Part shown: positions 31,781-64,000 of the stretch, piece by piece
Position numbering within the stretch: the first letter of the stretch is position 1
Layout: each line of letters opens with the position of its first letter
Source of the DNA: an uncultured bacterium
Lineage (GTDB): Bacteria; Patescibacteriota; Saccharimonadia; Saccharimonadales; DATKHC01
Direction of reading: 5' to 3'
Assembly: GCA_963699195.1 (NCBI GenBank)
Contig: OY969420.1
Span: 570,733-634,732, forward strand
Length of the DNA: 64,000 nt
The notes under the pieces: model-generated
Told to the model about the DNA's origin: nothing
Databases searched by the model: none
What the model saw: only the letters and a program-made list of their open reading frames with translations
Position numbers and translations under genes: made by a program

Positions 31781-33010
31781 ATGGAACTTGATATGAAACA
31801 GTTAGCCGTGGCTATAAAGTCTATTGCTGAAGAGAAAAACTTACCTGAAGATGTAGTCCAAGAAGCAGTTGAGCAAGCTCTAGCTGCTGCATATCGACGT
31901 GATTATGGTGAGCGTGAACAAGAAGTTCGCGTCACTATGAATCTAAATACTGGCCAAGTTGATGCATTTGTTACTGAAAACAGTTGTTGACAAAGTAGAT
32001 GATCCCGATAGTTCAAATTAGCTTTGGCTGATGCTAAGAAAATTAATCCTGATGTGAAGATTGGAGAGACGGTTGAAGTACACGAAAATATCACTCAATT
32101 TGGTCGTGTAGCTGCTCAAACTGCTAAACAAGTTATTCTTCAAAGACTTACGTGAAGCTGAGCGTGAAATAATCATGAACGAGTATGAAGATAAGATTGG
32201 TACAGTAATAAATGGTATAGTTGCTCGAGTTGAAGGACGAATTGTTCGAGTGGATCTAGGAAAAGCTCAAGGCATTATGCCTCAAAGTGAGCAAATCCAA
32301 AATGAGCGATATTATCCAGGACAAAGAGTCAAAGTTTTCTTAAAAGATGTAGAACGTGGTTTTAGAGGCCCTCAACTTAGTCGTGTCTCGTGGAAGCACT
32401 CAATTTATTGAATGGCTATTTAGCGCAGAAGTTCCTGAAATGGAGAGTGGAGCAGTAGAAATAAAAGGTATTGCCAGAGAAGCGGGTATTAGAACCAAAA
32501 TAGCAGTTCATTAGTACAGTCCCTGGAGTGGACCCAGTTGGTACATTTGTGGGCGGACATGGTACACGAGTAAATGCTGTTATGAGTGAGATTGGTGACC
32601 AAGAAAAAATCGATATTGTAGTTTGGGATGAACAACCAATTCCTTATATAACTAACGCACTAAGCCCAACCAAAGTACAAAAGTAGTACTGAATGAAGCT
32701 AATAAGAAAGCTGAAGTGTATGTGCCAGAGGATCAACTAAGTGTCGCAATCGGTAAAAACGGACAGAATGTTCGACTTGCTAGTAAACTAACCGGCTATG
32801 ATATAGATATAATCTCGGATGAACAGTCCAATGCTCCTGCTGAAACAGCGGAAGTATAAAAGTACCGAATCAGACATTGAGACAAAACCGGAAGCTAAAC
32901 AAGTAACTCAAAAATTGAAGAAAAAAGAGCAACTTGAGAGTAGCTTACTTGATGCCATAAACGAACATGGCGAAGAATCAGATGCCAAAGAAGCCCCAGA
33001 AGAAAAATAA
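31781..33010 (+). pseudogene. nusA: Transcription termination/antitermination factor NusA, at least 7 single-base frameshifts
   Basis: The pieces read colinearly across three frames: FGRVAAQTAKQVILQRL / REAEREIIMNEYEDKIG... / FIEWLFSAEVPEMESGAVEIKGIAREAGIRTKIAV / VPGVDPVGTFVGGHGTRV / [26 protein letters not shown]. Confidence 0.85.
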
Positions 33011-33016
33011 CTAAAC

Positions 33017-33307
33017 TTACTGACCCATTTGCTTAAAACCTGCTACGACTTGATCGTAAATGCTGTTATGACCCCTAGTGAACATCCAAGCATCCAAGGT
33101 TAAGAAAGTGCCCATACATATAGCCATGCCAAGAGAGTGTACTCTTTCTTTCATTCTATGATGTTCGAGTGGATTGGGATGTGCAAGTAAATCTGTAGCC
33201 TCGTTGACTACGTTTTGCAGTTCAGCTTGGTTAATGCTTGAATCAACTACGCTGCCTTTTATATTCCCGACGGCCCAATATTTGGTTGGCTCTGGTATTT
33301 CTGCCAT
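33017..33307 (-). CDS. Hypothetical protein (96 aa)
   Basis: Intact ORF. No family recognised. Confidence 0.4.
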   Translation of the reverse strand: MAEIPEPTKYWAVGNIKGSVVDSSINQAELQNVVNEATDLLAHPNPLEHHRMKERVHSLGMAICMGTFLTLDAWMFTRGHNSIYDQVVAGFKQMGQ

Positions 33308-33463
33308 ATAAAACCTCAGTGTTATGATGAGCTATGTAACCATATTAATAAGACTAATTCAATGGTATTTAATTAAAAATCTACCCTATTAAATGTTAAT
33401 TGTTATTAGAGTAGTTTGGAAAAACCATAAAAATAATCTAAAATATAGCCATAAGTTACTTAT

Positions 33464-62400: not shown

Positions 62401-63020
62401 CAACAACTATTACGATGGTCGAACTGGTGAAGCATTCAAAGAACGAACTGTAGTTGGTGTCATGCACATTCTTAAACTAGAGCACATGGTTACTGACAAG
62501 ATCCACGCCCGATCAACTGGTCCATACACAATGGTTACTCAGCAACCACTTGGTGGTAAGGCTCAAAATGGTGGTCAGAGATTTGGTGAGATGGAAGTCT
62601 GGGCACTTAGAAGCTTATGGTGCAGCTGTATCCCTACAAGAAATGCTTACTATTAAGTCTGATGATGTTTACGGACGAAGCAAAGCTTACGAATCAATCA
62701 TTAAGGGTACTGAAATTGTAGGACCTAAAGTACCAGAAAGCTTTAACGTTCTTGTTAAAGAACTTAAAGGTCTAAGTCTAAAGGTTGATCTTATACTAGT
62801 GATAAGCAAGTTACAGTTGATGCTGAAGAAGATTCTTGCAAGCAATATTAAAGAAGAAGCTAAGCACATTCCAACTGTAGATGTACCACAGCCAATGGCA
62901 TCACAGAGTTGATGAATCAGCTGATAACACTGCTAAATGAGTTCATGGTAGTTGATCTTGACGATGAACTTACACGAGCCGTGAAGTGAGCGACTGATTG
63001 TAACTGACGAAGTAATACTC
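59463..63020 (+). pseudogene. rpoB: DNA-directed RNA polymerase beta subunit, at least 10 frameshifts (3' end approximate)
   Basis: Colinear RpoB blocks in shifting frames: PNLV..., [158 protein letters not shown]. Confidence 0.88.
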
Positions 63021-63064
63021 GAATGATAACTATTCAGAAGACGAAATTAAGGAGGACTGCATAA

Positions 63065-64000
63065 ATGAGAAACTACACACCACGGCACAAATATTGCAGA
63101 TTTTGATGCTGTAAGACTTGCAGTTGCTAGCCCTGAAGACATACTTGAATGGAGTTACGGTGAAGTTACAAAGCCTGAAACTATTAACTATCGAACTCAG
63201 AAACCTGAGCGAGATGGTCTATTCTGTGAGCGAATTTTTGGACCAGTTAAAGACATAAACCCACACGACGCTAAATATAAGGGTATGCGAAGCCGTGAAG
63301 CAGCTGTTGATAAGAACGGTGAGATTGTAACTAAGTCTATTGTTCGACGTGAACGAATGGGCCACATTACTCTAGCTAGCACCTGTTGCTCACATTTGGT
63401 TCCTCCGTGGAACTCCATCAGCTATTGGTCTAATTCTTGGTATGACTGTTAAGAACTTAGAGCGAGTTGTTTACTTTGCTAGCTTACATTATTAAGATCA
63501 GTTGACACTGAAAAGCGTGATAAGATGCTTGACTGATAAAGAAGCTGAGTTTAATGCTGCTAAAGAAGCTATTAAGATTCGATATGAAGCTGAATCAAAA
63601 GCCGAAGACGCTAATGTTAAAGCATTAGCTGAAATGCAAACTAAAGAAATTGAGCGAAGTTACTAAAGAATTTGACACTGAACTTAGAGATCAACTACTA
63701 GCTACTAGAGAAGTTAAACTTAATCTCTGAAAAAGATTATCGAGAATCTACCTGAAGAAGTTCAAGAAGCTCATTACAGTTGGTATGGGTGGAACTGCAA
63801 TTAGAGAACTACTAGAAGAAATTGATCTTGGTGAATTAATTGAAGATCTATCAATAGAATCTGAAGAACTTAAAGGTCAGAGAAAGAAGAAAATAACTAA
63901 GCGATTAAGACTACTTGAGAACATGTATGAGGCTGGGATTAAGCCAGCTAGCATGTGCTTCAGCGTTCTTCCAGTTATTCCTCCAGATCTTCGACCAATG
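63065..64000 (+). pseudogene. rpoC: DNA-directed RNA polymerase beta' subunit, 5' part (runs off the window), several frameshifts
   Basis: AAGGAGG RBS, then ATG at 63065. [49 protein letters not shown] ... [11 protein letters not shown] ... VAHIWFLRG ... LPVIPPDLRP, read in changing frames. Confidence 0.85.

Follow-up and report, generated by a model that had tools for sequence, protein, structure and literature searches.

The window analysed here, a stretch of 64,000 nt on a 779,761-bp contig of the Saccharibacteria (Patescibacteria), contains a series of conserved genes, among them nusA, clpC, tyrS, rpoB and the start of rpoC, which are interrupted by dense frameshifts and alternate with blocks of intact genes. 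We conclude that these frameshifts are very probably a collapsed-haplotype (strain-mixture) artefact of the consensus sequence and not pseudogenes, and that the affected genes are almost certainly intact in the organisms. The window is a mosaic of clean and noisy blocks, genes that are broken in it are uninterrupted in an independent assembly, the noisy blocks carry real alternative alleles, and the inserted bases bear the signature of two alleles kept side by side.

Intact reference genes were found via searches with stitched RpoB and stitched ClpC sequences of the window, whose closest named homologues are those of Candidatus Saccharibacteria/Saccharimonadales. The best full-length protein matches, from Saccharibacteria/Saccharimonadales, showed 87% identity for RpoB and 85% for ClpC, and a near-identical intact RpoB or ClpC, belonging to either of the two haplotypes A and B described below, was not found in the protein collection searched. 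The contigs of these homologues represent two syntenic relatives, L084 (ENA) and L086 (JGI), in which all genes are intact. With MTase for methyltransferase, PBP for class A penicillin-binding protein, and hyp324 and hyp272 for hypothetical proteins of 324 and 272 aa, the gene order is rplS-rnhB-M1 peptidase-nusA-x-x-clpC-hyp324-radA-PIN/TRAM-bla-PBP-tyrS-MTase-recG in L086 and PBP-tyrS-MTase-recG-hyp272-rsmD-x-x-x-tig-clpP-rpoB-rpoC-rpsL in L084.

Frameshift-aware protein-to-DNA alignment of the window to the intact orthologues of L084 and L086 revealed about 177 events, comprising 126 shifts of +1, 42 of −1 and 9 two-base events, so that 168 of the 177 are single-base events with a 3:1 bias towards insertions among one-base indels. 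By comparison, only about 13 in-frame stops were encountered across the aligned genes, and these probably represent unresolved paired shifts. Negative controls, in which the DNA of one relative was aligned to the protein of the other, gave 0 events, and the count for tyrS was robust (17-22 events under another reference or a different penalty). The most heavily affected genes are those encoding the PBP (minus strand, 28 events), RpoB (59463-63045, plus strand, 26 events), TyrS (22), ClpC (19), RecG (17) and hyp324 (13), followed by the PIN/TRAM gene and the methyltransferase (9 each), the first 930 nt of rpoC (63065-64000, plus strand, 9 events), nusA (31781-33010, 8 events), radA (7), the M1 aminopeptidase (29039-31648, minus strand, 4 events), hyp272 (3), rsmD (2) and rplS (27899-28424, 1 event); rnhB, the bla-like gene, tig and clpP showed 0 events. 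Between the breaks, amino-acid identity to the relatives amounts to 94% for ClpC and 91% for RpoB. Much of what the initial annotation of this DNA had described, namely genes readable only by changing frame (at least 7 changes in nusA, more than 10 in clpC and at least 10 in rpoB), breaks that are single-base frame changes and not in-frame stops, and conserved motifs between them, is thereby confirmed, and the fragmentation at the places it named matches the open reading frame (ORF) maps. Its starting point for the damage at 31.78 kb has to be corrected, since the damaged zone begins at about 28.17 kb, in rplS, and continues in the M1 peptidase gene.

According to the ORF listing and the open-frame map, long intact ORFs occupy 1-27.9, 33.0-35.9, 47.0-48.4 and 52.0-59.3 kb, while elsewhere the longest open frames are mostly 40-200 codons long and distributed across all three frames. 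The density of events is 0 per kb in 32883-36024, 47002-48544 and 51991-59462, 1.3 per kb in 27879-31726, and 6.4-9.7 per kb in 31727-32882, 36025-47001, 48545-51990 and 59463-64000. The clean leading block (1..27878; dnaE, RNase J and others) consists of long intact ORFs; the ORF map showed no broken ORFs in these first 27.9 kb, and a Pfam check of overlapping ORF pairs found no hidden frameshifts there. It is followed by noisy block N1 (27879..32882), with rplS, rnhB, the M1 aminopeptidase and nusA (6.9 events per kb in nusA), and by clean island C1 (32883..36024, 0 events), which encodes a 96-aa ORF (minus strand), a 480-aa ORF and a class A beta-lactamase-like gene (minus strand). Noisy block N2 (36025..47001) extends from clpC to the methyltransferase and holds 107 events (9.7 per kb). 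The intact ORFs of clean island C2 (47002..48544) are a type IV pilin-like gene (47016-47519, minus strand) and a gene for a DUF347 membrane protein (47670-48431, minus strand); its right edge is approximate, with the first event in recG at 48734. Noisy block N3 (48545..51990, plus strand; recG, hyp272 and rsmD) has 6.4 events per kb, clean block C3 (51991..59462) comprises a tRNA-Leu gene, MFS, PadR, MazG, DinB, peptidase A4/G1, NUDIX, tig, clpP and a 119-aa ORF, and noisy block N4 (59463..64000, plus strand; rpoB and the start of rpoC; 7.7 events per kb, with +1 insertions accounting for 33 of 35 events) continues past the end of the window.

The noisy blocks correspond to the syntenic backbone, 80-100% of their length being alignable at the DNA level to L084 or L086 (97% of N2 to L086, 80% of N3 to L084, and 96% of N4 to L084 at 83% identity), while the clean islands are mostly absent from both relatives (0-24% alignable). 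At the position of C1, L086 has two other small genes; both relatives lack C2 between the methyltransferase and recG; and L084 lacks the C3 island from the tRNA to NUDIX as well as the 119-aa ORF. The damage is limited to segments shared with relatives, and the exceptions to this pattern are the first 27.9 kb and tig-clpP, the latter being common to L084 (53% alignable) and yet free of frameshifts. Since the broken genes include the M1 aminopeptidase, two hypotheticals, the methyltransferase, PIN/TRAM and rplS, and since the conserved genes tig, clpP and rnhB are intact, as is dnaE, we conclude that the position in the mosaic and not the function of a gene decides on the damage. The opposition of broken essential genes and intact accessory genes, which had been the framing of the initial annotation, therefore does not hold, and its notion that conserved segments are hit is correct for the backbone shared with relatives but not for essential genes as such. 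The clean stretches that it listed indeed contain no events and match at 100% wherever independent contigs exist.

Such independent contigs were retrieved through exact-protein look-ups from the Logan assembly of run ERR11523675; the strain that they represent is referred to as strain A, and the second source of the alleles in the noisy blocks as lineage B. Contig L001 (4.3 kb) corresponds to 31727-36034 of the window; its nusA gene is intact (403 aa) and precedes the three genes also found in C1. Over the 3,142 nt of 32883-36024 it shows 0 differences to the window; over 31764-32882 the two are separated by 57 substitutions (53 within the nusA coding region, the other 4 upstream of it), and the window has 7 one-base insertions and 1 one-base deletion relative to L001. 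Contig L083 (1.3 kb) is 100% identical to 47002-47848 (about 0.85 kb) and differs from the window by 32 substitutions and 17 indel bases over 46547-47001, i.e. the 3' end of the methyltransferase gene, which is uninterrupted in L083. A third contig, L088 (1.7 kb), matches 26181-27878 at 100% and breaks off 20 nt short of rplS. Because of this identity to independent contigs, the clean blocks faithfully reproduce an existing strain, A, which has an intact nusA and an uninterrupted methyltransferase 3' end. Look-ups with tig, DUF347, the long pilin start, MFS, the 119-aa ORF and clpP from Met9 gave no match, for which wrong starts or gaps in the collection are the probable reasons.

The ends of the ERR11523675 contigs lie no more than a few bases away from clean/noisy junctions (27878 for L088 and 36034 for the right end of L001), which is expected if the assembly graph of that run branches there and would place both haplotypes in that sample. 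The noise ends at 32883, 128 nt before the nusA stop codon, and the acidic C-terminal tail of NusA lies in the A-identical part, which suggests that the homology with the second haplotype ends inside nusA.

The same contigs bear on a genuine pseudogenisation, according to which the approximately 177 events would be true frameshifts and survival of the organism would depend on additional gene copies or on a decoding mechanism not known so far. In favour of such a scenario, the deposited sequence does contain the indels, and the window holds no second copies of the broken genes. However, the lesions are not reproduced in independent sequencing, since L001 with its intact nusA and L083 with its uninterrupted methyltransferase 3' end have flanks identical to the window's islands, and the relatives have all of these genes intact.

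In the noisy parts, the window diverges from strain A by 4.4-9.5% in substitutions. These are located at third codon positions in 37 of 53 cases in nusA and 24 of 32 in the methyltransferase, with ratios of synonymous to non-synonymous changes of 38:15 and 26:6, respectively. At sites that differ between the window and A, the outgroup L086 has the window allele in 27 and the A allele in 12 cases in nusA, and in 20 and 11 cases, respectively, in the methyltransferase. Based on the bias towards synonymous changes and third positions, and because the outgroup matches the window more often, we regard the differences from A as genuine alleles: judged from these comparisons, the backbone of the window carries alleles of another lineage B, which differs from A by about 4-10%, for the most part at silent sites. 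Decaying genes would be expected to show relaxed selection and lesions placed at random within codons, whereas the substitutions found here show purifying selection and the insertions, as described in the following, fall at silent sites.

At the base level, in comparison with A, all 7 inserted bases in nusA and all 13 in the methyltransferase are the synonymous alternative of the adjacent base, the adjacent base being in each of these 20 cases the third base of a codon or the first base of a Leu codon. The changes ACG to ACtG, GAC to GAtC, AGT to AGcT, TTA to cTTA, CTT to CTTa and GTT to GTaT are examples, and doublets of this kind were located at 31975 (ACTG), 32147 (CTTA) and 36987. In 7 of 18 cases the inserted base is the one found in the outgroup, while a random base would match in about 1 in 7. 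For the analysis of the whole window, we defined a synonymous doublet as an insertion that can be undone, with the same peptide as the result, by deleting one or the other of two neighbouring bases that differ. The 122 classifiable +1 events comprise 99 synonymous doublets (81%), 10 pure homopolymer events and 13 unique events. When insertions were placed at random in the same genes, 41% were doublets, 28% homopolymer events and 31% unique events, and random insertions run through the same aligner yielded 52%, 36% and 12%, respectively; the binomial p-value against a doublet rate of 40% is about 1e-20. In addition, 25 of the 126 insertions lie within the 4-mer CTTA at Leu codons, a ten-fold enrichment over the 2% expected, and CTTA is the product of keeping both alleles of TTA/CTA or CTT/CTA. 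As mutation and random noise are blind to silent sites, only a merge of two functional alleles yields the doublet pattern, and the insertions are indeed found at polymorphic sites, where they combine both alleles. Pseudogenisation, for which the 3:1 insertion bias and indels that use silent alternative bases at silent sites are a further difficulty, as no mutational process could target these, is in our view extremely unlikely.

Plain uncorrected long-read noise, in which patches of a single strain would have been missed by short-read polishing through multi-mapping, would account for patchy damage that consists mostly of single-base indels and is confined to a conserved backbone where multi-mapping is plausible. 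One event fits it: the break in rplS at 28166 is an extra A within an A-run (GTTAGT-AAAAA-GA) and is the one event that resembles an ordinary homopolymer-length error and not an allele doublet. Homopolymer errors would be expected to lie in runs within a sequence that is otherwise identical to the true strain, whereas pure homopolymer events are depleted among the insertions (8% vs 28-36% for random insertions), and the patches also carry the selection-filtered substitutions against the strain that matches the islands. Together with the inserted bases, which are the synonymous alternative in every base-level case and far above the null models window-wide, this makes long-read noise highly improbable as the source of the pattern. 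Programmed recoding, i.e. ribosomal frameshifting or transcriptional slippage that restores the frames, has nothing in its favour beyond the presence of frameshifts. It would have to act 7-28 times per gene and to do so outside slippery heptamers or long homopolymers, of which there are none, 89 of the 126 skipped bases lying in runs of length 1; moreover, these sites have no conserved counterparts in the relatives, which are unshifted, so that the probability of this explanation is vanishing.

The strain-mixture artefact, which we favour, probably arose as follows. At least two related haplotypes that occurred together would have supplied the reads for the consensus. In regions with a single contributing haplotype, such as strain-specific islands, a perfect consensus equal to strain A would result, and the sequence might also stay clean where the strains are identical, where B has diverged too far or where B was assembled on its own. 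Along the syntenic backbone, lineage B reads would have piled onto the same contig, so that B alleles predominate in the consensus. Both alleles would have been retained in tandem at some of the sites at which A and B differ, turning ACG/ACT into ACTG and TTA/CTA or CTT/CTA into CTTA, and less often neither allele would have been retained, each such site producing a frameshift of +1 or −1. For the generating step, we infer that consensus building or polishing penalised indels less than mismatches, as long-read error models do, in which case XY would fit a mixed X/Y pile-up better than X or Y alone, especially beside a short homopolymer (CTTA, ACTAAAA). The leading idea of the initial annotation, a mosaic assembly involving a co-occurring relative, is thus corroborated by the independent contigs, which are intact beside identical islands, and by window alleles that come from another lineage, but not the noisy long-read consensus that it had proposed as the source of errors, because the indels are not random noise and instead keep both alleles at polymorphic synonymous sites. 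The check for homopolymer association that it suggested returned such an association for some events only, and its non-homopolymer examples CTT-a-CGT and GTT-a-GTA turned out to be of the both-alleles doublet type.

Several points weigh against this interpretation. Haplotype B was not found in any collection searched; the two haplotypes are deduced from assembled sequences, and the coverage step is a prediction. With regard to deletions, the 42 one-base events are indistinguishable from the null for codon-position bias at the resolution of the protein alignment, and the base-level comparison with A provides only 4 of 5 deleted bases at third codon positions. Polishing with cheap indels as the cause is an inferred step. 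Finally, the first 27.9 kb and tig-clpP contain backbone-type genes and yet are clean, which requires the extra assumption that B is identical there, too divergent, differently arranged or separately assembled.

These clean stretches would be easier to explain if the co-occurring strains were identical there, as in a sub-variant of the artefact explanation, and not an alternative to it, in which the backbone, once freed of the indels, represents the genome of a real strain with A-identical islands, acquired by recent transfer or recombination between lineages diverged by 5-10%, and only the indels are artefactual and stem from cross-mapped reads. The window backbone alleles are real alleles, and the change from 100% identity to 5-10% divergence is abrupt at the junctions, which coincide with homology edges; both findings agree with this sub-variant. 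On the other hand, both sequenced relatives lack the islands, which makes it simpler to assume that B lacks them as well, the ERR11523675 contig joins the islands to an A-type and not to a window-type nusA, and the same pattern is expected of a chimeric path with A islands and a B backbone, from which assembled sequence cannot separate it. We therefore regard this sub-variant as possible but doubtful. It is unlikely that the mosaic is partly biological in the sense that two soil lineages with backbones diverged by 5-10% share 100% identical islands and stretches, with the indels still being artefacts. The islands concerned may be the 3.1-kb nusA-clpC island, the pilin/DUF347 island and the tRNA-Leu-linked 4.9-kb island, and the stretches tig-clpP and the first 27.9 kb; if true, this would imply very recent island transfer or gene-specific sweeps between the lineages.

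Collapsed-haplotype long-read assemblies are known for consensus and polishing errors at heterozygous or strain-variable sites, which are addressed by haplotype- or strain-aware polishers. The window shares with them that errors are limited to collapsed regions, that the consensus is a mosaic, that indels occur at SNP (single-nucleotide polymorphism) sites and that haplotype-unique regions are clean; it differs in that the diagnosis could be made read-free from a codon-level signature, i.e. tandem synonymous alleles and CTTA at Leu codons. Like frameshift-rich long-read metagenome-assembled genomes (MAGs) with homopolymer indels, it shows many single-base indels that fragment genes in a long metagenome contig, but here homopolymer events are depleted, insertions prevail over deletions, about half of the sequence is error-free and the errors accompany real allelic substitutions. 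Frameshift-interrupted ORFs are also numerous in pseudogene-rich host-restricted bacteria such as Mycobacterium leprae or Sodalis-type symbionts, in which decay affects accessory genes first, lesions are reproducible across isolates and selection is relaxed, none of which holds in the window. The resemblance to chimeric strain-mixing metagenome contigs or MAGs lies in two related populations within one contig and in switches at the edges of shared homology, whereas the shared parts of the window are a per-site blend, a sequence present in neither strain.

Further observations concern the gene content of the clean blocks and their surroundings. Two identical 27-nt inverted repeats of the CIRCE type, TTAGCACTC-N9-GAGTGCTAA, are located upstream of clpC (36009-36035) and upstream of clpP (58211-58237); 0.01 are expected by chance. 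The repeats suggest a putative HrcA-type control of Clp genes in this Saccharibacterium. The copy upstream of clpC is not fully conserved in strain A (L001), where two nucleotides of the spacer (window 36025-36026) are different. The tRNA-Leu gene (51991-52075), the only Rfam match over the window, forms the left edge of a 4.9-kb block (51991-56873) with MFS, PadR, MazG, DinB, peptidase A4 and NUDIX. L084 lacks this block between rsmD and tig, and by its arrangement the block looks like a tRNA-adjacent genomic island. Within it, a 329-aa protein (55317-56306, minus strand) carries an N-terminal membrane anchor followed by a full-length Peptidase_A4 domain (G1 glutamic peptidase; E=4e-34); to our knowledge, this family is uncommon in genomes of the candidate phyla radiation. 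Directly upstream of the onset of synteny and noise, 24896-27582 contains a cluster of small ORFs (84-108 aa) and a gene for an NYN-domain protein (27013-27582); the 108-aa ORF carried on L088 has no precomputed Pfam match.

A scan of JGI metagenomes with DUF347 returned 80 loci, all with at most 75% identity and none of them syntenic. A transfer of DUF347 from Acidobacteria was considered and dropped, as the best loci are low-GC (42-44%) like this genome. The peat metagenome contig Ga0182024_10055525 (L004; 6.2 kb, 42% GC) carries homologues of genes from two different islands of the window, namely DUF347 (342-1148, 72% amino-acid identity) and the MFS transporter (3508-5202, 81%), which indicates that these accessory genes co-occur in related peat or soil genomes. 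Scanning GTDB genomes with the 480-aa island protein gave a 35%-identical protein of the Terriglobia as the sole match, from which we conclude that the species is not represented in that scan. The same artefact was also considered for RpoB fragments on other long contigs and rejected: L087, a 305-kb wood-metagenome scaffold on which rpoB is called as two genes of 461 and 686 aa (10001-13573), shows one split only, which probably reflects a gap in the scaffold or one error and has nothing to do with the dense pattern, and the matches listed seem to be at most 1.75 times the query length.

Taken as a whole, the frameshifts are not a real biological feature and reveal no new biology of this organism. 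About half of a 64-kb stretch, on a 0.78-Mb contig of nearly genome length, is a blend of two strains that contains about 7-10 spurious frameshifts per kb, with the consequence that pseudogene counts are inflated, that universal marker genes used for phylogeny and completeness estimates are fragmented, and that RpoB and ClpC fragments are seeded into protein databases, where one is already present (P0001). The synonymous-doublet/CTTA signature provides a read-free discriminator between a strain-collapse artefact, true pseudogenes and ordinary homopolymer errors.

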